From: Gemmataceae bacterium
Lineage (GTDB): Bacteria; Planctomycetota; Planctomycetia; Gemmatales; Gemmataceae
DNA length: 64,000 nucleotides
Direction of reading: 5' to 3'
Assembly: GCA_044337875.1 (NCBI GenBank)
Contig: JBIIMS010000005.1
Span: forward strand, 142,350-206,349
The notes beneath the pieces were generated by a model. The model did no database searches. It was not told the DNA's origin and was given only the letters and a program-made list of their open reading frames with translations. This document shows positions 20,679 through 58,547 of the stretch, piece after piece. The number at the start of each line of letters is the position of its first letter. The first letter of the stretch is position 1. The position numbers and the translations under genes were made by a program.

Positions 20679-21419
20679 TTGGATTTGTCACACATATTAG
20701 TGCTGGGATTATTATTTTTTCTAGCTGCGTTATTGTATTCTTCGGTAGGCCATGCTGGCGCATCCGCATACATTGCAGCAATGGTTCTTATGGGGGTCGC
20801 CCCCAGCATCATCAAGCCCACTGCTTTCATCCTTAATATTTTTGTGGCTAGCCTGGTGACTTATCAGTTTCGAAAGGAGGGATACTTTCAATGGAAATTA
20901 TTCTGGCCTTTTGCATGCGCTTCGGTGCCATGCGCTTTTTTGGCATCGTATGCATCGTTACCATTAAGCTGGTTTAAATTAGGCTTGGTGATAATTCTTT
21001 TATTGGGATCATTGAGGTTGTTCTTGCATAATGATGATTCGAAACCTTGGTATCCCAACCGCTTTAGTACTTACAAAGGGATGATGATAGGTGGGATGAT
21101 AGGTGGACTTTCGGGCCTGACGGGAACAGGTGGAGGAATATTTCTATCGCCCATCATTCTTTTTTCGGGCTGGGCCAACACCCGCACGACTTCTGGAATC
21201 TGTGCAGCTTTTATTCTGGTCAATTCAATCGCAGGCCTGATGGGATGCATCGCTTCCACCCATTTTTTACCCGAGGCAATCTTCCTTTGGGTTCCCATCG
21301 TTGCCTTCGCAGGGTTTCTAGGCAGCCAATTAGGAATTCGAAAACTTCCCCCAAGAATTCTTCTGCGATTTCTCGGGCTGGTGATGGTAATTGCAGCGTG
21401 CAAACTTATGTTTCAATAA
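20679..21419 (+). CDS. TauE/SafE-family (DUF81) anion/sulfite exporter-like membrane protein
   Basis: TTG start. 246 aa with about 8 TM helices. The N-terminus LLYSSVGHAGASAYIAAM and internal GGLSGLTGTGGGIFLSPIIL are typical of TauE/SafE. Confidence 0.7.
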   Translation: MDLSHILVLGLLFFLAALLYSSVGHAGASAYIAAMVLMGVAPSIIKPTAFILNIFVASLVTYQFRKEGYFQWKLFWPFACASVPCAFLASYASLPLSWFKLGLVIILLLGSLRLFLHNDDSKPWYPNRFSTYKGMMIGGMIGGLSGLTGTGGGIFLSPIILFSGWANTRTTSGICAAFILVNSIAGLMGCIASTHFLPEAIFLWVPIVAFAGFLGSQLGIRKLPPRILLRFLGLVMVIAACKLMFQ

Positions 21420-21486
21420 TCGCTAGATATCACAGTTAAAATCGTATAGGATACAGGCTCGTTCTTTTATTATTAAAGGATCAGCC

Positions 21487-23151
21487 ATGGCAGAAAATCC
21501 AAGAACCGATAGTTTCCTTAATCCGAAAGATCATCGGATTGGTATTTATATCAAATGGCCCTACCTAGTTGCTTTCACCGTTTTAGCGCTAACCCCCGTT
21601 GCGATGGCGTGGGCTCAATACTTTCTCATGGGTCTGCCTTCCCTGCCCGAAAGCCCCAAGGTTATTCCCGAATCATTTAACGACCCGATTGGCTTTCCTG
21701 TATGGCTGCGCATCAATCACTTTGTCAACTTTTTCTTGATGGTGCTTCTGGTACGAAGCGGGCTCTCCATTCTTGTAGATCACCCCAGACTTTACTGGAA
21801 CGATCATTGCACCCTCGGTTCGGAATGGATCCGATTCACCCCAATCGTGGTGCCCAAAGATTCCGTCTGGACCGCCAAGCAAGATAGCAGATACCTATCG
21901 CCTTGGATCGGGCTTCCCGGTTTCAGACATACCGTGGGCATCGCTCGCATATGGCATTTCCTTAGCGCATTCTTCTGGTTCGGCAACGGCCTTATCTTTG
22001 TCGGGTTATTGTTCTTCACGAACCAATGGAAACGCCTGGTGCCCGTGGATTTTCAGATCTTCCTCGATGCCTGGTCGGTTCAAGTGCACTATGCAACCTT
22101 TCACCTTCCTGTCGAACCCAATGGATTTTATAAGTACAACCCACTGCAACAACTTTCGTACTTTGGCGTTGTCTTTGCAATCGCACCAATCACCTTTCTA
22201 ACAGGCTTGGCGATGTCCCCCGCAATAGACAACCGCTTTAAATGGTACCCCTATTTATTTGGTGGCAGGCAGTGCGCCCGTTCCATTCACTTCCTCGCAT
22301 TATTAGGTTACCTTGGATTTTTGGTCCCTCATGTGACCATGGTAATCATCACCGGCTTTGCCCAGAACATGAACCACATCGTTTTCGGTACTGATGATAC
22401 CAACCCGATGGGCATGATAGTCGGGCTATCTGCAATTGCCCTGACAGCAGCGTTCTGCCTGTTCGCAAACTGGTTCTCTTGGACAAATCCACGATGGTTA
22501 CAACTTGCATCACGCACCATCCTTGGGTTCTTCAAGAGGCTTTTCGTCAACAAGATGGAATCCGTCGTTCAGTATAAAAAAGAAAACATCTCTCCCTATT
22601 TCTGGCCCAATGGCAACCTTCCAATCTGCGATGAATGGAAAAACCTTTCTGCAAACAACTTCAAGGACTACCGCTTGAAAGTATTCGGACTGGTCGAAAA
22701 CCCGATCGAACTTTCACTTGAAGATATGGCGAAGATTGCAAAACAAGACCAAGTCACCATGCATCATTGCATTCAGGGATGGTCGGGGATTGCCCACTGG
22801 GGTGGGGTGCCCGTTCACAAAATCATCGAAATGGTGAAACCACATAAGGACGTCAAAACGGTTGTCTTTCATTCCTACGGCGAAGGATTGCATGGCGGAG
22901 AATATTACGACACCCTCACTCTTTACAATGCCCAACATGATCTCACCCTTCTTGCATTCGAAATGAATTACGAGAAACTCCCACTTATTTATGGTGCGCC
23001 ACTCCGGTTGCGAGCTGAAAACCAACTTGGTTTCAAGATGGTCAAGTGGATCAAATCGATCGAGTTTGTTACTTCCGAAAAAGTAGTAGGCAAAGGCTTT
23101 GGTGGCAAGAACGAAGATGATGAATACTACCCCATGCTTGCCAACATTTAA
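21487..23151 (+). CDS. Membrane b-type-cytochrome-like domain fused to a molybdopterin-binding (sulfite-oxidase/MsrP-like) oxidoreductase domain
   Basis: The N-terminal approximately 330 aa are polytopic with conserved His. The C-terminus VTMHHCIQGWSGIAHWGGVP...GAPLRLRAENQLGFKMVKWIKSIEF matches the Oxidored_molyb domain signature. Confidence 0.65.
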   Translation: MAENPRTDSFLNPKDHRIGIYIKWPYLVAFTVLALTPVAMAWAQYFLMGLPSLPESPKVIPESFNDPIGFPVWLRINHFVNFFLMVLLVRSGLSILVDHPRLYWNDHCTLGSEWIRFTPIVVPKDSVWTAKQDSRYLSPWIGLPGFRHTVGIARIWHFLSAFFWFGNGLIFVGLLFFTNQWKRLVPVDFQIFLDAWSVQVHYATFHLPVEPNGFYKYNPLQQLSYFGVVFAIAPITFLTGLAMSPAIDNRFKWYPYLFGGRQCARSIHFLALLGYLGFLVPHVTMVIITGFAQNMNHIVFGTDDTNPMGMIVGLSAIALTAAFCLFANWFSWTNPRWLQLASRTILGFFKRLFVNKMESVVQYKKENISPYFWPNGNLPICDEWKNLSANNFKDYRLKVFGLVENPIELSLEDMAKIAKQDQVTMHHCIQGWSGIAHWGGVPVHKIIEMVKPHKDVKTVVFHSYGEGLHGGEYYDTLTLYNAQHDLTLLAFEMNYEKLPLIYGAPLRLRAENQLGFKMVKWIKSIEFVTSEKVVGKGFGGKNEDDEYYPMLANI

Positions 23152-23166
23152 AATAGGCCAACTCAA

Positions 23167-24300
23167 ATGCTAGACGAAGCCAGCAGGATCAAAGATTTTC
23201 CTTCCCTCGGAAACAGGATCTACTTTAACTCTGCTGCAGAAGGTATCCCCCCACTTTCTGTAAAGGATGCACTGCTTCAATATTTCCAAGATAAACTTCT
23301 TGGAATGGATGGCAGATTGCTGCACGAAGCCCAATGGAATGCCACCCGCGAATTAGTTGCTTCTTTCTATAATCTAACACCCACCGAAATCGGTTTATGC
23401 TCCTGCTCTTCTGAAGCCTACAACCTTGCATCGATGGCTTTGCATTTGAAAGCGGGCGATGAAGTTGTCATCAATGATCTTGATTTTCCAGCAGGCGCAA
23501 CCCCTTGGCTGCAGGAAGGATGCCCTGCAACCGTAAAAGTTTGGCGGAGTCGAAATGGCATCTTGCAATTTGAAGATCTTGTGCCACTCCTTGGTTCAAA
23601 AACCCGCCTAGTGAATGCATCGCTCGTAAGCTTCCTCAACGGTTTTAAAATCTCTGTACCCAATCTTGTAGAGATCGTACGAAAGCATTCACCCAGCCTT
23701 TTGGCTGTTGATGTTACTCAGGCACTGGGCAGAATCCCCCTGCAACTTCAGGGCGTTGATTTAATAATCAGCAGTACCCACAAGTGGATTCTTGCAAGCC
23801 ATGGTGGTGGCTTAGTTGGAGTACCTTCTGCCAAAAATAATTCTCTTACTGTTCCCGCAGGTGGTTGGTTCAATCTTGAAGAGCCCTTTGGCGCTAACCG
23901 CTTCACCGAAGCTAAAAGTAAACCAGGCGCAGCAAGCTTTGCAGTGGGCATGCCCAATTACCCAGCAATTTATGCGATCCGCGCTGGGCTGCAATACATC
24001 CAATCCATCGGCGTTGAAAAAATCGATGCTGCAACACGACCTTTGGTTTTGCATTGCCTCGAAGAGTTGGCAAAATTGCCCATCGAACTAATCACACCCA
24101 CGAATCCAGAACATGTTGCGGGCATCTTGGCATTTCGACATCCCAAAGCTGATGTTATTCATGCGCATCTAAAATCAAAAAATATTCATGTGATGGGCAA
24201 TGCAGGGCGATTAAGAATTGCAATCCATGGCTACAACACCCATGGAAATGTGGAAGTGCTGCTTCAGGAATTAAAAGCCGTGCTAAAGCAATTGGGTTGA
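23167..24300 (+). CDS. Class V aminotransferase / cysteine desulfurase-like PLP enzyme
   Basis: 377 aa. SSTHKWILASHGGG carries the PLP-lysine context (S-x-H-K) of the class V fold. The start is 15 nt after the preceding stop. Confidence 0.7.
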   Translation: MLDEASRIKDFPSLGNRIYFNSAAEGIPPLSVKDALLQYFQDKLLGMDGRLLHEAQWNATRELVASFYNLTPTEIGLCSCSSEAYNLASMALHLKAGDEVVINDLDFPAGATPWLQEGCPATVKVWRSRNGILQFEDLVPLLGSKTRLVNASLVSFLNGFKISVPNLVEIVRKHSPSLLAVDVTQALGRIPLQLQGVDLIISSTHKWILASHGGGLVGVPSAKNNSLTVPAGGWFNLEEPFGANRFTEAKSKPGAASFAVGMPNYPAIYAIRAGLQYIQSIGVEKIDAATRPLVLHCLEELAKLPIELITPTNPEHVAGILAFRHPKADVIHAHLKSKNIHVMGNAGRLRIAIHGYNTHGNVEVLLQELKAVLKQLG

Positions 24301-28816: not shown

Positions 28817-30229
28817 ATGGCTTATTCTCATGTGATTCGTGGCGAACAATATAACTTCGCAGATCTTAAAGCGCTTTTAGCCAAGGCCAATGAACCCAAA
28901 TCCGGAGATTTACTTGCAGGCATCGCTGCGAACAATGAAAGAGAACGCATCGCTGCAAAAATGGCCCTTGCAGATCTACCCCTAAGCGAATTCCTTGCCC
29001 ACCCCATTCTCGACCCCGATGCCGATGACGTCTCCAAAGTAATATTCGACACCCATGACTCAGTTGCGTTCAAACCCATTGCATCCCTTACGGTAGGGGA
29101 ACTACGAGAATACTTATTGCAGGATTTGCCCCAAGGAGCAGAACTTAAAAACCTTCAACAGGGGCTTACCCCAGAAATGGTAGCTGCGGTCACCAAGCTG
29201 CTTGCCAACAAAGAGTTGATTGCAATTGCAGCTAAGATTAAAAACATCGCCCGTTGCAGAAACACCACCGGCATTGCAGGAACCCTAGGCGTTCGTATCC
29301 AACCCAATCACCCCACCGATAACACCGCTGGCATTGCAGCTTCCTGCATCGATGGATTGCTTATGGGGGCGGGCGATGCAGTGATAGGGGTCAACCCCGC
29401 GGTGGATTCCATTGATTCCGTTTCCGCAATTTTGAAATCCATCGATCATGTAATCACCTCGCTGAATATTCCAACTCAGGGATGCTGCCTAGCACACATC
29501 TCCACCCAGTTAGGTGCGATGAAAAAAAACGCTCCAATTGATCTTTTATTTCAATCCATAGGTGGGACTCAGAAAACCAATGAAAGCTTTGGCATCTCTC
29601 TCGCCCTGCTTAAGGAAGGTAAAGAGCAAGTGCTAGAACATCACACATCCAGAAATGTTAATTGGTTGGGTAATCAAGCCATGTACTTTGAAACCGGGCA
29701 AGGTAGTTCGCTTTCTGCAAATGCCCATCATGGTATTGATCAACTTACCCTCGAGGCCCGGGCCTATGGCTTGGCACGAACCCTTGACCCGTTTCTTGTA
29801 AACAGCGTGGTGGGTTTCATCGGGCCGGAATATCTTTTTGATGAAAGACAGATCATTCGTGCAGGGCTTGAAGATCACTTCATGGGCAAATTACTGGGCC
29901 TACCCATGGGAGTTGATGTTTGCTTTACCAACCATGCCGAAGCGGATCACAACTCGCTTGATAACCTGCTTCTATTGTTGGCCAATGCTGGGGTTAATTA
30001 CATCATGGGGGTTCCATCAGGTGATGATGTGATGCTTAGTTATCAAACTACAAGCTATCACGATGCAGCCATGGTAAAGTCTTTGCTTGGGCTTAAGGCT
30101 GCGCCTGAATTCCAAACATGGCTTGAACATAATGGAATCATGAATGGCTCTTCGCTTTGTGGCAAAGACCGAGCTTTTACAGTTATGAAAAATATTCTTC
30201 CAATTCTCGAAAACACCAAGGATGCTTGA
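28817..30229 (+). CDS. eutB: Ethanolamine ammonia-lyase large subunit
   Basis: 470 aa. The N-terminus YSHVIRGEQYNFADLKALLAKANEPKSGDLLAGIAA and overall length match EutB. Confidence 0.9.
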   Translation: MAYSHVIRGEQYNFADLKALLAKANEPKSGDLLAGIAANNERERIAAKMALADLPLSEFLAHPILDPDADDVSKVIFDTHDSVAFKPIASLTVGELREYLLQDLPQGAELKNLQQGLTPEMVAAVTKLLANKELIAIAAKIKNIARCRNTTGIAGTLGVRIQPNHPTDNTAGIAASCIDGLLMGAGDAVIGVNPAVDSIDSVSAILKSIDHVITSLNIPTQGCCLAHISTQLGAMKKNAPIDLLFQSIGGTQKTNESFGISLALLKEGKEQVLEHHTSRNVNWLGNQAMYFETGQGSSLSANAHHGIDQLTLEARAYGLARTLDPFLVNSVVGFIGPEYLFDERQIIRAGLEDHFMGKLLGLPMGVDVCFTNHAEADHNSLDNLLLLLANAGVNYIMGVPSGDDVMLSYQTTSYHDAAMVKSLLGLKAAPEFQTWLEHNGIMNGSSLCGKDRAFTVMKNILPILENTKDA

Positions 30230-31704
30230 TGAACACCAATGAAAAACACGCCAGCGAAGACCAAAAAAACTTAGCCAGAATGGGTTACGAGCAAGAGCTT
30301 TTCCGGGGGTTTAGTGCGTTTTCGAACTATGCGCTTTCCATGTCCATCATTTGTATCCTTGCGGGTGGTATCACTTCTTTTCATATGGGGTATTGTGCAG
30401 CAGGCCCCGCAGCAATTGGAATTGGCTGGCCCATTGCTTGCTTATTTTCATTTGCAGTAGCAGCAGCAATGGCACAGATAGCCTCTGCGTTTCCTACCGC
30501 AGGCGGGCTTTATCACTGGGGCTCTCTTCTAGGTGGCAGAGGTTGGGGCTGGGTTACTGCTTGGTTCAACCTTGCTGGTATTGTCATCATCCTTGCTGCC
30601 ATCAATGTGGGCACCTGGAACTTTATCGAAAGTAGTATTTTCGGTAGCGCTGATCTAGGGGACTTCGCTCAGGTTATTGCTGTTTCCATCATTACTTTTT
30701 CACAGCTTGCCATCAACCTTTTTGGCATGCGCATCGTTAACCCCATGACCATCTTCAGCGGTTACTGGATTCTGATGGTAACTGTTGCACTGGTTGTTTT
30801 GATGTTGGTTTTTGGCGGGCCCGTGCATCCCGAAAGATTATTTCAATTCGAAAACTTCAGTGGCCTTCCTGAAGGTGACAAACAAGTATGGCCCGAAATA
30901 GAATCAATCGCATGGCTTTTTTTTCTGGCAATGCTGCTTCCAGCCTACACCATCACTGGATTTGATGGCTCCGCCCACGCCGCTGAAGAAACAAAGAACG
31001 CTGCATCCGCAGTCCCCAAGGCAATCATGCAGGCAGTAATAGTTTCCAGTATTGCAGGCTATATACTGCTTGCTGTTGCAATCCTGGTGATTGATGATAC
31101 CAAGCATGTTGCAATGCAGGGCGATCGGGCATTTGTCACCATCGTTGAACAATCCCTCCCCAAACTTTTACAGGCCCCGGCATTCATCGCAATTGTTCTT
31201 TCACAATACCTTTGTGGTATGTCTGTAATAACTGCGGCATCTCGCATGGCCTTTGCATTTGCAAGAGATGGTGGCTTACCTTTTTCCAACTTCTTCAAAA
31301 AGGTTTCCCCTAAAACCCAAGTACCCACCAATGCTATCTTTTTGGTTTCCATCACTGCAATCCTGTTTACACTTTATTCGCATCTTTATGACACCATAGC
31401 AGCGGCTGCAACCATCCTTCTTTATCTGTCCTACATGCTTCCCATCCTTGCAGGATTTTTTGTACATGGCAAAAGTTGGAAAAGCATGGGCCCCTGGCAC
31501 CTGGGAATCTGGTTTAAACCAATGGCATTATTAAGCACGATTGCATCGATTGGAATTGTTTGCATTGGCATCCAACCTCCCAATGAAAAAGCTGGTTATG
31601 CTGTGCTTGCACTCACCATCTTCCTCATTGCGTTCTGGTTTACCGTAGCAAGGCACCGCTTTCAAGGCCCCCCTATTTCCCTGAAACAAATGCAGGAAAA
31701 ATAA
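30229..31704 (+). CDS. APC-family amino acid/ethanolamine permease
   Basis: ATG 30229 overlaps the eutB stop (TGATG). About 12 TM helices. MGYEQELFRGFSAFSNYALSMSIICILAGGITSF is typical of the APC superfamily. It sits between eutB and eutC. Confidence 0.75.
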   Translation: MNTNEKHASEDQKNLARMGYEQELFRGFSAFSNYALSMSIICILAGGITSFHMGYCAAGPAAIGIGWPIACLFSFAVAAAMAQIASAFPTAGGLYHWGSLLGGRGWGWVTAWFNLAGIVIILAAINVGTWNFIESSIFGSADLGDFAQVIAVSIITFSQLAINLFGMRIVNPMTIFSGYWILMVTVALVVLMLVFGGPVHPERLFQFENFSGLPEGDKQVWPEIESIAWLFFLAMLLPAYTITGFDGSAHAAEETKNAASAVPKAIMQAVIVSSIAGYILLAVAILVIDDTKHVAMQGDRAFVTIVEQSLPKLLQAPAFIAIVLSQYLCGMSVITAASRMAFAFARDGGLPFSNFFKKVSPKTQVPTNAIFLVSITAILFTLYSHLYDTIAAAATILLYLSYMLPILAGFFVHGKSWKSMGPWHLGIWFKPMALLSTIASIGIVCIGIQPPNEKAGYAVLALTIFLIAFWFTVARHRFQGPPISLKQMQEK

Positions 31705-31706
31705 TC

Positions 31707-32462
31707 ATGGACCATGAAGCGGCAATACAAACGATTTGTAAATCCTTAACTTCAGCAAGAGTATTTGCAGCCCGAAAAGGCACCGCCCTTTCCACCAAGG
31801 ATTGGCTTTTACTTCGTGCAGATCACGCCTTCGCCCGAGATGCTGTTTTTGAATCCATCGATTTGGAACGCGATTTCCGCAGCGAACGAATCGATCAAAT
31901 GGGACTGTTTGAAGTCGCTTCCAAAGCCAATAACAGACATGAATATTTACTAAAACCTGATCTGGGCAGGCAATTAAATCCCCCTGATCGCAATCGCATC
32001 CAGCAGCAATGCCCTTTCCAACCGCAACTCCAAATCATCCTTGCGGATGGATTATCCCCCGCAGCTTTAAAACTTCAAGGACCACCACTTCTCGACTCCC
32101 TCTGGGAACTTGCACTTAATCAGGGTTGGACTCTGGGCAGGCCTTTCCTTGTTCATCAGGCACGCGTTGGGATTCTTAACGAAATTGGAAATCTACTCGA
32201 ACCAGAAATCGCAATTCTTCTCGTTGGCGAACGGCCCGGCTTAACCACAGCAAACAGTCTTTCCGCATACCTTGCTTACAAACCCAATCTTGGCCAGGAT
32301 GATGCAAACCGCAATTTGATTTCCAATATTCATGGGAACGGTGTAGGGACCAAGGATGCCTGTGTTCGAATCATGGCCCTGGCACAATCAATGAGAAGCG
32401 CAAAAACTGGTGGTATCACCATCAAGGAAACTTTGACGCTGGTAAAAGCACCAAATGATTAA
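31707..32462 (+). CDS. eutC: Ethanolamine ammonia-lyase small subunit
   Basis: 251 aa. ILADGLSPAAL and LLVGERPGLTTANSLSAYLAYKP are EutC signatures. It starts 2 nt after the permease stop. Confidence 0.85.
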   Translation: MDHEAAIQTICKSLTSARVFAARKGTALSTKDWLLLRADHAFARDAVFESIDLERDFRSERIDQMGLFEVASKANNRHEYLLKPDLGRQLNPPDRNRIQQQCPFQPQLQIILADGLSPAALKLQGPPLLDSLWELALNQGWTLGRPFLVHQARVGILNEIGNLLEPEIAILLVGERPGLTTANSLSAYLAYKPNLGQDDANRNLISNIHGNGVGTKDACVRIMALAQSMRSAKTGGITIKETLTLVKAPND

Positions 32463-36606: not shown

Positions 36607-36820
36607 TGCAACTCTTTCAACAAAGTTGGTTTAGGGATTACCATCGGGTTATCATCTTGTATCAAAGAAAAACATCAAGCTAAAACTAATATTTTAAAAA
36701 GGGTGGCAAAAAATGGGACAGGTCTGTTTTGCATGGCTTAACACCATGCGCAGAAGAAGTAGGCGAACTGTATAACACCTTCATCTAAAAACCCATATAT
36801 CTTTTGCGCGATTCCAAAAG

Positions 36821-53727: not shown

Positions 53728-55581
53728 TTAATCAGGTTGATTAGCGGGGCCAATCTTCCCAGCCCTTTTAATGATAGGGCCATTTTCCACCCTGCGAAGT
53801 GCAACACGCGTATTATCATCCGTGGTAATTCCTAGGAACATAAAGCACATTTCATCGGTGGTCTGCTCACCAAACTTAACCCACTTGGGCGGGATGCTAG
53901 GGTTGTGGGGATTGTTGTTGGTATTATCAAAGACAGCTTCGATCTCAATTTTAGTACCTTCTTTTAGCCTCATTGGTTCCTTGAGAAAATAAATCTCCTG
54001 CCAGTTGTAGTCCCACGAATCAATGCGAATAGCTTCAAAAGTTTTTTCACCGGGCTGAGTTATGTTCATAACAAATTTCTTACCGATAAGGTGCATATGA
54101 GGATCGACAGAATGCATTAATACTTCTTGGGCAAGCCAGATGGTATTGCGAACGGTATAGTCGGGCTTATTTGCAGGGATGACAAGAAACTGCCCGGGAA
54201 TCACAAGAGGCTGCACATAACGCTTTGCAGGTTTCTTAGCAAAGTAAAGCCCAACACGAGAGCGATCTTTTTCTTCTTTGCCTGTACGATGGTAATGCAT
54301 CTGAACAATAAAATCAGATCCCTTAGGAAGGAAGTAACCAATGCCCTCGGGAAGAAACTTAGGAGAAATGCCGGGCGCCCAGCCACCCATTTCCCCCGAA
54401 GGAGGAAACCCAACACCCATTGCAGAAGTATAACCCGGGCCATGATCTCCCTTGGTTTCTCCCACACCATTCTTTTCCTTCCAACTGCTTTGTAAATCTC
54501 TGCCTTTACCCGATTTATCCAAATAATGAAGGGTATGATGAACCACCCTGCGATTGCCTGGCCTAAATTCATAAGCCACCACAATTTTGTCTTCGGTGAG
54601 ATTAGTAGGTAAAACCATACAGCGGAAAAGATCTTTGCCTGTACCTGCCAACACCATATCTTCAGAAGGTTCCAAAATTAAATCGGGCTCTCCCAATTGC
54701 CAACCTTCGGTAAACCGCTTGGGCAATGGTGCATTAGCAAAATCCCCTTCCGCACATCCCCCCTTTACCCAGTTGCGTAGCAACGAAGTTTCCGCATCAC
54801 TCATTCTGCGTTCGCCCCGATAGTGCAATCCGCCACTAGGCAACCAAGGTGGCATCTGTTTTTTCTCTACCACTTCCACAAGAAGATCTTTCCAGCGCAC
54901 TGCATCGTTAAAGCTGGTTAACGAAAAGGGGGCGACTTCTCCCGGACGATGGCAGGCTTGACATTTTTCCTGAATAATCGGAGCGATATCGCGATGATAA
55001 GTTACTTTACCCTCTGCAACTTTGGGCAAAGGCCTGCTAATAGGGCAACCCACCGCATCGGTTTTTTTAATCTCAGGTGCTTTGTTCGCAAGATAAGATT
55101 CAATCGCATCGATAAGATCTTTTTTCTTAGGCGTAACATTCCTACGCAAACGTTCGGTCCAAGAATCATCCACTCTTCCCGAGTAAACGACCGCCCCTTT
55201 TGAATCCAAAAGAAACACCTCAGGCGTAATCTTTGCGCCTAAAGCATCCACCAATATAAGCTTGGCGTCATGAAGAACTGGAAACCCAATTTTATACTCG
55301 CGAGCATCTTTCTTTAACTCAGAATCCTCATCCGAATTGGGAATCACCCCAATAAAATTCACACCCTTGGAACTATAGAGGGTTGCGAGTCGGGCTAGTT
55401 CTGTGCTGTATTCTGAACTTATCGGGCATTCAAATTGCATGAAAACAACGACCGTCGCCTTGCTGCCTGCGTGATCTGCCAACTTTGCAGCCTTGCCCTC
55501 TAGATTCTTTATCGAGACTTCAAGCGGGTTGGCCTGCATCATTGCAAAAGATAAAAGACAAAGTGTTGTAATCGAATGCAT
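53728..55581 (-). CDS. Secreted fusion: thioredoxin-fold redoxin (CPIS), heme-c CxxCH segment and copper type II ascorbate-dependent monooxygenase-like (PHM/DBH-like) domains
   Basis: The frame is open from 55611. ATG 55581 has AGGA upstream and gives the signal peptide MHSITTLCLLSFAMMQA. Motifs: VVVFMQFECPISSEY (redoxin, CxxS), CQACHRPG (heme c), and VVHHTLHY, MHYHRTGK, PHMHLIGK and TDEMCFMFLG (copper-site-like His/Met motifs). Confidence 0.65.
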   Translation of the reverse strand: MHSITTLCLLSFAMMQANPLEVSIKNLEGKAAKLADHAGSKATVVVFMQFECPISSEYSTELARLATLYSSKGVNFIGVIPNSDEDSELKKDAREYKIGFPVLHDAKLILVDALGAKITPEVFLLDSKGAVVYSGRVDDSWTERLRRNVTPKKKDLIDAIESYLANKAPEIKKTDAVGCPISRPLPKVAEGKVTYHRDIAPIIQEKCQACHRPGEVAPFSLTSFNDAVRWKDLLVEVVEKKQMPPWLPSGGLHYRGERRMSDAETSLLRNWVKGGCAEGDFANAPLPKRFTEGWQLGEPDLILEPSEDMVLAGTGKDLFRCMVLPTNLTEDKIVVAYEFRPGNRRVVHHTLHYLDKSGKGRDLQSSWKEKNGVGETKGDHGPGYTSAMGVGFPPSGEMGGWAPGISPKFLPEGIGYFLPKGSDFIVQMHYHRTGKEEKDRSRVGLYFAKKPAKRYVQPLVIPGQFLVIPANKPDYTVRNTIWLAQEVLMHSVDPHMHLIGKKFVMNITQPGEKTFEAIRIDSWDYNWQEIYFLKEPMRLKEGTKIEIEAVFDNTNNNPHNPSIPPKWVKFGEQTTDEMCFMFLGITTDDNTRVALRRVENGPIIKRAGKIGPANQPD

Positions 55582-55818
55582 AATGATTTTTCCTGTGTTT
55601 AATGAGCACAATGAATCAACACTAACTCAATCATTTTATCAGGGAGACGTGACAAGAGATTCTGGCATTGGTTTAATTACATCAACCTCAAGTTTAACAG
55701 GTTCAGAATGAACCCCGTCCGGCAGTTTTGCGAAGAAAACCTCTAGAAAAACTTTTTGCGTTCCTTCAGGCACTTTGCTGGTCTCGACCGAGGCCAGAAA
55801 GGGATCTTGTGAACCCGC

Positions 55819-56121
55819 TCAGCAATCCTTCGAGAATGGTTGTGCCAAAGGCTCGCTCAATAATCCATCTGCATCTTGAAACCTTGTCAGGATTGTTATC
55901 TCGGGCAAAGATTCGCCTTCTTGCATCATCAGCCAGCGATCTACAGAATTGCGTTTTAAATTCACCCGAAGCAACACATCATGCGCCACGCCTTCCACCC
56001 ACGATTTCAAAGCTGCGGGCTTTAATTCCAAAACATCGCCCTTGCGAATACCCGCACCGCCACATCCCGAAAGAAGTGTTAGTGAAACAATCAATGGTAT
56101 TACCAGGTAAAGCCTTCGCAT
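55819..56121 (-). CDS. Small lipoprotein ending in Cys-TGA (possible read-through or selenocysteine extension to 55639)
   Basis: ATG 56121 (the frame is open from 56181) gives MRRLYLVIPLIVSLTLLSGCGG (lipobox). The annotated end is ...PFSKDC-TGA at 55821-55819. See the corresponding finding. Confidence 0.45.
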   Translation of the reverse strand: MRRLYLVIPLIVSLTLLSGCGGAGIRKGDVLELKPAALKSWVEGVAHDVLLRVNLKRNSVDRWLMMQEGESLPEITILTRFQDADGLLSEPLAQPFSKDC

Positions 56122-56183: not shown

Positions 56184-57740
56184 TTATCTGGGCTGTTCAG
56201 TTTTCTTAAGAGGTTTACCTGCCAGCTTTCCAGTGGCCTTTCCATCCATAATTGCAAAGGTGCCATTAACAAGAACATGGCTTATACCGGTGGCATACTG
56301 ATGTGGTTTGTCGTAGGTGGCTTTATCGCGAAAAGTATCAGGATTAAAAACTACAATGTCTGCAAAATACCCAACCTTCAAATAACCACGATCCTTAAGG
56401 CCCATGATATCTGCAGGTAACCCACTCGCAGAACGGATTGCAGTTTCGAGTGGAATAAGCTTTTCTTGAATTGCATAAAAACCAATCTTGCGGGGGAAGG
56501 TTCCATAATTCCGAGGATGAGGCACGGAAGAAGTGTCGGGAACCTTTGCGCCACCATCACTTGCGGTGGCAACAAAATCCTGCTTCATGAACAGGCGCAT
56601 ATCTTCCTCACTCATGCCAAAGTGCACAATCTGAGCGCCTCCGTTTTTCTCTATTTCAACTACAATATCAACCGGAGATTTGCCCATCATTTTTGACAAA
56701 TCTGCGATGTTTTTGCCTGCATATCTAGGCTTTTGCGCATAATAGGCAATCCGCAAGTCAGCACCCCCATTCATAGATTCCAAAGAATCTGCAATCGCTT
56801 TTCTAAGCAACACCCCAAGCTCTGGGTCTTCAAATCTTTTCACCAACTCGGCTCGCTCGCCCTCACGAAAACGCGAAGGCACCACCGTTGCAGTAAGAGA
56901 GGTGCTGCTTGCAATGTAGGGGTATTGATCTGCTGTAACTTTGATTCCGTTCTTTCTTGCCTGCATTAACAGTGCAAGCACATCGCCTGATTTGCCCCAT
57001 ACGGATCTGCCCGAAACCTTGATATGCGAAATATGCACAGGCATATTAGCTTCTTTTCCGATAGCTAATGCCTCATTGATTGCGGGAAGAACTTCAGAAC
57101 CCTCATCGCGAATATGACTCGCATAATAGCCGCCATGGGAAGAAGCAACTTTTGCTAGCGTGATTAATTCGGGAGTCTTTGCATAAGTACCTGGGTTGTA
57201 AATCAAACCAGTGGAAAGGCCCCACGCACCATCCTTCATCGCCTTGGTTGCAAGATCCACCATTTTTTTCAACTCAACTTCAGTAGGCGCACGGTTTACA
57301 TTTCCCATAACTGCCCTTCGGGCATCGTTATGGGGAATTTGATGAGCAACATTACTGCCAACATTTACTTTTAAAAGAGCTTTATAAAAAGCCTCGGTAT
57401 CAACAGGGCCAGAGCCACAATTGCCTGTAACCGTAGTGGTAACCCCCTGAAAAAGGTAGTTAAGATTGGCATTGGTTGGCAGCTTCAAAAGAGGAAAATC
57501 GCTGTGAGTATGCATATCGATGAACCCAGGCGCTATAATTAAACCGGAAACATCAAAAGATTTTGTGTTAGGAGGGATTGGGAAGGAACCAATCGCAGCA
57601 ATGCGCTCGCCCTTAATCGCAATATCGCCCAAAACGGCCATTTTGCCTGTTCCGTCAAAAACTAGTCCCCCTTTAAGAATAAAATCGGCATCCAGAGGTG
57701 CTGCAGCAAAGAATAGGAAGGCGAAAAGGGGTAGGAGCAT
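56184..57740 (-). CDS. N-acyl-D-amino-acid deacylase (D-aminoacylase) family amidohydrolase
   Basis: 518 aa with a signal peptide and the metal-binding motif APGFIDMHTHSD. The length and C-terminal beta-domain are typical of the family. Confidence 0.75.
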   Translation of the reverse strand: MLLPLFAFLFFAAAPLDADFILKGGLVFDGTGKMAVLGDIAIKGERIAAIGSFPIPPNTKSFDVSGLIIAPGFIDMHTHSDFPLLKLPTNANLNYLFQGVTTTVTGNCGSGPVDTEAFYKALLKVNVGSNVAHQIPHNDARRAVMGNVNRAPTEVELKKMVDLATKAMKDGAWGLSTGLIYNPGTYAKTPELITLAKVASSHGGYYASHIRDEGSEVLPAINEALAIGKEANMPVHISHIKVSGRSVWGKSGDVLALLMQARKNGIKVTADQYPYIASSTSLTATVVPSRFREGERAELVKRFEDPELGVLLRKAIADSLESMNGGADLRIAYYAQKPRYAGKNIADLSKMMGKSPVDIVVEIEKNGGAQIVHFGMSEEDMRLFMKQDFVATASDGGAKVPDTSSVPHPRNYGTFPRKIGFYAIQEKLIPLETAIRSASGLPADIMGLKDRGYLKVGYFADIVVFNPDTFRDKATYDKPHQYATGISHVLVNGTFAIMDGKATGKLAGKPLKKTEQPR

Positions 57741-58181: not shown

Positions 58182-58547
58182 ATGTATAGTGTTGTATTGT
58201 TGGTTGCCCTTAGTGGCAGTGCTGATGTTGTTGAACTTGGCGGACACAAGAGCTGCAATGGTTGCAGCGGCGCCGTAGTTGTTGAAAAGTCCAGCTGTAA
58301 TGGCTGCAAGGGCGGACACAAGTTGTTCGACCGTGCTCCTAAGGGCTGCTGTGGTGGTAACAAGTTGTTCGACCGCGCATCTAAGAGCTGCAATGGTTGC
58401 AACGGTGGCGGACACAAGTTGTTCAACCGTAGCTCCAAGAGCTGCAATGGTTGCAATGGTTGCACAGGTTGCACCGGTGGATCTGCTGTACCAATGGCAG
58501 AACCTAAGAAAGAAGAAAAGAAAGAAGCCCCTAAGAAGGCTGCTTAA
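58182..58547 (+). CDS. Small secreted Cys/Gly-rich tandem-repeat protein (CxxC repeats), uncharacterised
   Basis: GGAG lies 8 nt upstream of the ATG. N-terminus MYSVVLLVALSGSA. There are 12 Cys in 121 aa, arranged as K/S-S-C-N-G-C four times, plus GCC and CNGCNGCTGC. There are three (H/N)KLF(D/N)R units and a KKEEKKEAPKKAA tail. A strong plus-strand terminator follows. Confidence 0.6.
   Translation: MYSVVLLVALSGSADVVELGGHKSCNGCSGAVVVEKSSCNGCKGGHKLFDRAPKGCCGGNKLFDRASKSCNGCNGGGHKLFNRSSKSCNGCNGCTGCTGGSAVPMAEPKKEEKKEAPKKAA
58242..58480 (+). repeat. In-frame tandem DNA repeats inside the Cys-rich gene
   Basis: AAGAGCTGCAATGGTTGCA occurs three times (at 58248, 58382 and 58436), with a diverged fourth copy AGTCCAGCTGTAATGGCTGCA at about 58289. 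AAGTTGTTCGACCG/AAGTTGTTCAACCG recurs three times. Confidence 0.8.

Follow-up and report, generated by a model that had tools for sequence, protein, structure and literature searches.

A lipoprotein gene on the minus strand of a 64,000-nt stretch of a Gemmataceae genome (contig JBIIMS010000005.1, positions 142,350 to 206,349; hereafter the window) is split by an in-frame TGA that directly follows a cysteine codon. Sequence comparison leads us to conclude that the two parts of this gene probably form a single lipoprotein precursor of 160 residues, with selenocysteine (Sec) inserted at UGA-101, a reading to which we give a probability of about 0.8, pending a check of the decoding machinery. Sec at this position had been suggested by the original prediction and is now supported by a conserved UGA, a coding continuation and a covarying hairpin that resembles a selenocysteine insertion sequence (SECIS). 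The lipoprotein would then, in all likelihood, represent a previously unrecognised bacterial selenoprotein family; the mechanism is known bacterial Sec recoding, so it would be new as a family only.

The open reading frame (ORF) starts with an ATG at 56121, runs to 55822 and ends in ...PFSKDC, followed by the TGA at 55821-55819. A further 59 in-frame sense codons (AGSQDPF...LVTSP; in full, AGSQDPFLASVETSKVPEGTQKVFLEVFFAKLPDGVHSEPVKLEVDVIKPMPESLVTSP) lead to a tandem TGA-TAA at 55641-55636. These elements were re-read from the DNA and agree with the original prediction. The features of the gene are as follows.

55639 to 56121, minus strand: recoded ORF in full length, Met1 to Pro160 (160 sense positions, the proposed Sec at 101) plus the terminal TGA; layout kept in 39 loci
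56062 to 56121, minus strand: lipoprotein signal peptide with lipobox L-S-G-C (Cys20), read from the sequence
55822 to 55824, minus strand: Cys100 codon TGC, directly 5' of the UGA; D-C-U invariant
55819 to 55821, minus strand: in-frame UGA, proposed selenocysteine codon 101; TGA in 39/39 loci
55773 to 55801, minus strand: SECIS-like hairpin CUUU-C-UGG-C-CUC [GGUC] GAG-A-CCA-G-C-AAAG (fold energy, covariation, RNAalifold consensus, covariance model)
55759 to 55830, minus strand: nucleotides nearly invariant even at synonymous sites, -9 to +62 relative to the UGA (alignment diversity)
55642 to 55818, minus strand: 59-codon C-terminal continuation (AGSQDPFLASVETSKVPEG...LVTSP), conserved as protein
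55636 to 55641, minus strand: two stops in tandem, TGA TAA, that end the ORF; conservation is lost and indels appear immediately 3'

Conservation of the TGA and of the downstream frame

We assembled 38 related loci from NCBI metagenome-assembled genomes (UBA969, LacPavin, ZE-17MAR17-plancto121, Loc090116 and others), JGI and ENA metagenomes and Logan assemblies, which together with the window gave 39 loci with 25 distinct gene sequences. The pattern that defined an orthologue tolerated any codon or residue at the critical position and did not demand a stop. Proteins of the window's clade share 73-99% identity. A second clade (the P0025 clade, loci L029-L034), recovered by exhaustive HMMER search, is 42-44% identical to the window protein, and a third (L035-L037), at ~30% identity, was reached only via synteny: the neighbouring gene has 65%-identical homologues, and the members of this clade lie upstream of them.

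An alignment of orthologues had been named in the original prediction as one way to examine the Sec proposal, and in it the TGA was kept at the exact same codon in 39/39 loci from all three clades, the downstream frame was conserved as protein and the GGUC hairpin was conserved with covariation. The length of the continuation varies little (56-60 codons across the 39 loci). Unlike the invariant internal TGA, the terminal stop alternates between TGA and TAA across loci; among the 41 long ORFs of the window taken as genes, TAA is the preferred stop (29 TAA, 7 TGA and 5 TAG). Residues invariant across clades lie on both sides of the UGA and include the lipobox G-C, RxGD, W41, R57, R62, E68, F96 and the D-C-U triad, together with PF-x-ASV, P118, G120, E127, G136 and K150. 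At the N terminus, the signal peptide of the window reads MRRLYLVIPLIVSLTLLSG-C with lipobox LLSGC (Cys20 at 56064-56062); reading the sequence gave an N-terminal signal peptide that ends in the lipoprotein pattern L-[AS]-[GA]-C, and a lipoprotein signal model gave a weak match only. The lipobox of the other clades is L(L/V)(T/V)G-C. In the window's clade the mature protein has no Cys or Sec other than the lipid-modified Cys20, Cys100 and the proposed Sec101.

The pattern of substitution indicates that the UGA is nearly certainly read through. For the continuation, the ratio of nonsynonymous to synonymous rates (dN/dS) is 0.24-0.47 in frame versus about 0.5-1.9 in the two other frames. Against L029, of the second clade, synonymous sites are saturated (proportion of differing synonymous sites 0.80) at a nonsynonymous proportion of 0.38. 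No indels occur between the UGA and the second stop, and they begin straight after it. From codon 21 on, the continuation carries a coding signature, with a diversity of ~0.30 at third positions and ~0.05 at second positions. Conservation at the protein level starts immediately 3' of the UGA, where L029 differs by the synonymous changes GGU->GGA, CCC->CCG and UUU->UUC, and the continuation can be aligned even at 30% identity.

The original prediction held that the continuation has no usable start. This was too strong, as a GTG at 55773-55771 opens a 44-aa ORF; what stands is that this GTG is not conserved across clades, being replaced by GTT, GTA or ATT in the others. Internal initiation at this GTG, or at a C/G/UUG codon at +24, was rejected, as neither is conserved as a start and conserved codons lie upstream. 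JGI gene callers call the 44-aa ORF separately from the 100-aa part (L040, 17846-18148 and 18194-18328; L042, 11419-11721 and 11767-11901), and other callers give the 100-aa part alone; all public entries of the family would therefore be misannotated. All 22 close database homologues terminate at ...KDC, and the databases hold at least 24 protein clusters (hundreds of member sequences) of the lipoprotein truncated at residue 100. One ENA homologue of 117 aa (P0023) is frameshifted; it diverges after residue 62 and crosses the UGA region in another frame, and probably reflects faulty assembly or a true pseudogene present in one sample. A scan of the window for other TGA-split ORFs gave only shadow frames inside real genes.

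The hairpin downstream of the UGA

The GGUC hairpin that had been described 21 nt after the TGA, with one C/A mismatch, is present. Its core, CUGGCCUC-GGUC-GAGACCAG, lies at 55797-55778 and extends to 55801-55773 through a lower CUUU/AAAG helix. The loop occupies 55789-55786 (offsets +32 to +35), 29 nt after the UGA, and this offset is constant in all clades; the Ser and Val codons that form the loop are always UCG and GUC. In the window's clade, third-position diversity is ~0.05 over the first 19 codons after the UGA, compared to ~0.30 over the remaining codons of the continuation and 0.33 in the N-terminal part. These values indicate that the first 20 codons of the continuation also encode an RNA element.

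The decisive support for the hairpin is comparative, not thermodynamic. Its upper stem appears in four variants, GCCUC/GAGAC (window), GCAUC/GAUGC (L029), GCUUC/GAGGC (L035) and GCCUC/GAGGC (L036), and the lower helix shows compensatory swaps (C-G to U-A and U-A to C-G). In an alignment of 11 sequences, 90% of cells are paired and three pairs are changed on both sides. None of 500 column shuffles matched the observed pairing, the count of double changes or the covariation score, and controls in which the pairing was slid along the alignment fell to 33-56% pairing. RNAalifold independently predicts the identical hairpin, and a covariance model of it, run over 231 kb of window and related-locus sequence, matched only the element itself, once per locus. 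Taken as a single sequence, the hairpin does not stand out in stability (z = +0.3 to +0.6), and another fold competes with it. The competing minimum free energy (MFE) fold, which pairs CUUUC with GAAGG, was rejected, as it shows no compensatory change.

Only three GGUC tetraloop hairpins of comparable quality were found in 128,000 nt, and just one of the 2275 TGA triplets of the window, that of the lipoprotein, has such a hairpin 16-37 nt downstream; chance co-occurrence of the two is unlikely. Another GGUC-tetraloop hairpin of the window, ATGGGACA-GGUC-UGUUUUGC at 36721 on the plus strand, is intergenic, just upstream of a kinase/WD40 gene, and is probably due to chance.

The published model of the bacterial SECIS (bSECIS) asks for an apical loop of 3-9 nt that starts with G[G/U], an upper stem of 4-16 bp, a UGA-to-loop distance of 16-37 nt and an MFE no higher than -7.5 kcal/mol (PMC13188914). 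The hairpin fits these constraints: both its 4-nt GGUC loop and its spacing of 29 nt are inside the limits, as the original prediction had said of the distance, and the energies of the four variants are -10.9 (window), -19.5, -12.3 and -19.3 kcal/mol. The upper stem has at least 5 continuous base pairs in three of the variants and consists of 3 bp, the C.A mismatch and 4 bp in the window's clade.

The original prediction had also likened the loop to that of the Escherichia coli fdhF SECIS. The likeness is correct, as the 46-nt fdhF SECIS was found exactly in more than 5400 E. coli genomes and folds with a GGUC tetraloop. In both genes an in-frame UGA is followed by a stem-loop inside the coding sequence, and the verified fdhF element (GGU-U-GCA [GGUC] UGC-ACC) has the same arrangement, two 3-bp helices separated by an interruption and capped by the GGUC loop. 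The two differ in that the loop begins 18 nt after the UGA in fdhF versus 29 nt here, and in that the interruption is a bulged U in fdhF versus a C.A mismatch here (absent from the other clades). The proteins are unrelated: FdhF is a cytoplasmic molybdoenzyme, whereas the protein encoded here is a small lipoprotein, predicted to be exported.

Sec machinery, Cys homologues and alternative explanations

Several results weigh against Sec insertion. None of selA, selB, selD or tRNA-Sec was found in the window, in the 10 kb past each of its ends or in the related loci. Pfam searches of the 41 window ORFs returned no sel genes; ARAGORN, run on the window plus 31 loci, found no tRNA at all, hence no tRNA-Sec; tblastn with E. 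coli SelD gave no match in the window or related loci; and the 10 kb beyond each window end, read from a 317-kb JGI contig, contained no sel genes. Because these searches cover only ~84 kb of a multi-megabase genome, the result neither supports nor refutes Sec decoding. Among Planctomycetes, the Sec machinery is reported to be complete in some members, namely Gemmata, Isosphaera and two Porphyra-associated strains, and to be missing from other members (PMC4807772). The JGI contig (Ga0453064_0000005, which carries L040 and L043; 317,412 bp, metagenome 3300042464) encodes at least the proteins at both ends of the window (ROK and scramblase-like) identically, and the window corresponds approximately to its positions 111,064-175,063, reversed.

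A Cys-form or full-length homologue was likewise absent from searches of 5.8 billion and 1.84 billion proteins, carried out by word-indexed search with the fused protein and with a five-sequence profile and by exhaustive HMMER search with the mature N-terminal part; these yielded only forms truncated at the TGA. Such a lack is atypical, because nearly all known selenoproteins have Cys homologues (PMC12013277, PMC13188914). Current selenoprotein pipelines demand such homologues (PMC12013277, PMC13188914, PMC1088965), so the lipoprotein family would be filtered out, which would explain its escaping notice; no description of it was found in the literature searched, a limited collection. In being small, lineage-restricted, without a known domain and recognised from a conserved in-frame TGA plus a bSECIS-like hairpin, the lipoprotein resembles the 'hypothetical protein' selenoproteins of metagenome surveys (Sargasso Sea, GOS and deep-Sep; PMC1088965, PMC2398784, PMC12013277), but those were found by pipelines that need Cys homologues, of which none was found here. 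The remaining adverse points concern the hairpin, whose upper stem in the window's clade carries the C.A mismatch and faces a competing fold of about equal stability. Rfam gave no match at gathering thresholds and only chance-level matches (E ~1) at a permissive threshold, a result that may say little should Rfam hold no general bacterial SECIS model.

If only a single sequence were available, an in-frame stop would by default be read as a nonsense-mutated pseudogene or as a sequencing or assembly error, both of which the original prediction had named as alternatives. They are excluded because the same TGA recurs in 39 independent loci (25 distinct sequences) and purifying selection acts on either side of it. 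Genome-wide reassignment of UGA was also rejected and has the same negligible probability: TGA ends 7 of the 41 long ORFs of the window as well as the lipoprotein ORF itself, and the genetic code is taken as standard because TGA terminates genes there. It is also very improbable that the TGA is a true stop, such that the gene encodes a 100-residue lipoprotein and the conserved 180 nt downstream are a small ORF or a regulatory RNA or leader for the Redoxin gene that follows. A true stop would agree with the database annotations, every one of which ends at KDC, with the separate 44-aa ORF called by JGI, with nucleotide-level conservation of the 60 nt that follow the TGA, as expected of an RNA element, and with the lack of any terminator-like site found between the lipoprotein gene and the next gene. 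Beyond +60, however, substitutions follow a coding pattern in the frame of the upstream ORF (diversity ~0.30 at third and ~0.05 at second positions, dN/dS 0.24-0.40), and that frame is kept in three clades without indels, in contrast to the indel-rich DNA past the second stop. The GTG that would start the small ORF is lost in other clades, and synonymous changes preserve the residues ahead of it (DPF-L/V-ASVE). The low confidence of an AlphaFold model of the N-terminal part (mean predicted local distance difference test, pLDDT, 61) is weakly indicative as well, being compatible with an incomplete domain.

The only serious rival, which we consider unlikely, is programmed readthrough of the UGA without Sec, in which the hairpin would stimulate a near-cognate or suppressor tRNA (Trp, Cys, Gly or Arg) to yield the same 160-residue protein. 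All evidence for translation past the UGA fits this explanation equally well, and it would sit easily with the absence of sel genes from the ~84 kb and related loci searched and with the missing Cys-form homologue. Sec insertion is nonetheless favored by a hairpin that meets the bSECIS constraints and repeats both the SelB-binding loop GGUC and the stem layout of fdhF. A sense codon would be a cheaper means of encoding an ordinary residue, yet UGA is present in 25/25 distinct sequences across saturated synonymous divergence, and the invariant adjacent Cys matches known selenoproteins with a Cys-Sec (CU) motif. We know of no established mechanism in bacteria for hairpin-dependent UGA readthrough without Sec at a fixed site.

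Gene neighbourhood, possible function and significance

Full-length proteins with U written as C had no match in Pfam (all three clades) and no significant match in NCBIfam (the window's clade and that of L029), and a sequence profile found no match in the PDB. An alternating hydrophobic pattern suggests a beta-rich domain. AlphaFold, applied to the 100-residue N-terminal part alone, gave three strands and a helix, with a pLDDT of 39 over the last ten residues. The genes on either side are as follows.

53728 to 55581, minus strand: downstream exported Redoxin/haem/copper (Cu)-monooxygenase-like protein, 57 nt past the stop; the only neighbour common to all three clades
56184 to 57740, minus strand: upstream Amidohydro_3 gene, a neighbour in two of the three clades only

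The downstream gene starts 57-63 nt past the lipoprotein stop in the two clades measured (the window's and that of L029). Its 617-aa product combines a Redoxin/AhpC-TSA domain with CPIS, a second GCPIS motif, a CQACH haem c motif and a C-terminal domain like that of copper type II monooxygenases. These motifs are all conserved, including the CPIS that the original prediction had correctly noted in the thioredoxin-fold domain. The protein belongs to an apparently uncharacterised family of more than 3000 members, mostly annotated as 'peroxiredoxin / cytochrome c family protein' in Planctomycetes. Homologues of the downstream gene at ~50% identity are without an upstream lipoprotein gene, so the lipoprotein seems to have arisen in a single lineage.

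In the mechanism we propose, the hairpin that starts ~20 nt after the UGA would present its GGUC loop to SelB-GTP-Sec-tRNASec during translation, and SelB, competing with release factor 2, would bring Sec to the UGA. The ribosome would then proceed for 59 codons to the tandem TGA-TAA, and the product would be exported and lipid-anchored at Cys20, with the vicinal Cys100-Sec101 pair as its functional centre; failed decoding would leave a 100-residue truncated lipoprotein ending in Cys. The pair could act as a selenenylsulfide redox switch or bind soft metals of the Cu or Hg type, and the lipoprotein may partner the exported Redoxin (CxxS)/haem c/Cu-monooxygenase-like protein with which it would be co-transcribed. 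The comparison shows a conserved UGA, coding selection on the continuation and a covarying hairpin that fits the SECIS model, whereas SelB binding, Sec insertion, export, lipidation, CU chemistry and the partnership with the neighbour are inferred. The pair is the likely functional centre, and conserved adjacency makes the partnership with the downstream protein plausible.

Mammalian thioredoxin reductase has a C-terminal Gly-Cys-Sec-Gly redox centre in which Cys and Sec form a selenenylsulfide. The lipoprotein would share a vicinal Cys-Sec pair able to form such a bond between small flanking residues (D-C-U-A-G here), and on this analogy we hypothesize a redox role. It differs in that the pair is internal, in having neither a flavoprotein domain nor homology to the reductase, and in its bacterial form of recoding, with the SECIS inside the ORF.

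The CU motif is a rare selenoprotein signature, described for SaoL, SaoB, SaoC, HgcA, some MerT and redoxin-domain proteins and KCU-star, and database entries for such proteins typically break off at the Cys; CC and CU motifs have been read as heavy-metal ligands, some members face the cell exterior and the partner SaoX is a lipoprotein (Haft & Gwadz, bioRxiv 10.1101/2022.07.06.499078). As in these families, the proposed Sec directly follows an invariant Cys, with D-C-U in all clades here. There is, however, no sequence similarity, the corresponding NCBIfam models did not match the lipoprotein and the gene neighbourhood differs. CC-form members are known for these families and none was found for the lipoprotein, whose hosts are freshwater Planctomycetes of lake metagenomes, not strict anaerobes. 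The CU literature favors metal binding at least as much as a redox dyad for the Cys-Sec pair.

Elsewhere in the window (GC content 45%, with DUF1501, PSCyt/PSD and DUF1559 genes), positions 58182-58547 on the plus strand encode a predicted secreted Cys/His-rich protein of 121 aa with three GGHKLF[DN]R..K.C[NC]G repeats and SCNGC motifs. Its low-complexity DNA is covered by several overlapping ORFs in other frames, and it had no NCBIfam match. A gene of 84-136 aa lies in the same place, between ubiE and the amidohydrolase gene, in L001, L005, L029-L032 and L040-L042, and the protein might bind metal. Positions 20679-24297 (plus strand) hold a TauE/SafE-type exporter, a fusion of cytochrome b561 with an MsrP/sulfite-oxidase-type molybdopterin domain and a distant SufS/CsdA/SclA-like class V aminotransferase, with all NCBIfam scores far below the curated cut-offs. 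This cluster may be linked to sulfur or selenium metabolism, and nothing ties it to the lipoprotein. At 28817-32462 (plus strand), eutB and eutC (ethanolamine ammonia-lyase) flank an amino-acid permease gene, the ORF of which (TTG start) overlaps the end of eutB by ~70 nt as listed.

The lipoprotein is unusual in its lack of any Cys homologue found, its rare CU motif, its lipoprotein nature and its host lineage of freshwater Planctomycetes. More tentatively, and with rather less confidence than doubt, these features might be drawn together as an obligate-Sec family, never Cys and without Cys relatives, that arose in one abundant freshwater Planctomycetes lineage. Its lipid-anchored Cys-Sec centre might serve the downstream protein as a resolving or redox partner or as a shuttle for Cu(I) or another soft metal, with selenium supply setting the ratio of full-length to truncated protein.

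For annotation, the entries of the family end at residue 100, and gene callers sometimes add a spurious 44-aa ORF. A family without Cys homologues shows what a test of conservation plus suppression of synonymous change can recover and, if the obligate-Sec reading is true, a whole class of selenoproteins would be shown to escape standard pipelines built on Cys/Sec pairs systematically. The Cys-Sec dipeptide is uncommon and has been linked to heavy-metal or organometallic chemistry, and an exported, lipid-anchored example beside a Cu-monooxygenase-like redoxin in aerobic lake bacteria would extend the setting of the motif. On the obligate-Sec reading, the lipoprotein would also give an experimental handle on the more than 3000 uncharacterised redoxin-monooxygenase proteins of planctomycetes. 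If confirmed, it would place Sec decoding in a widespread freshwater lineage of a phylum in which the trait is patchy.

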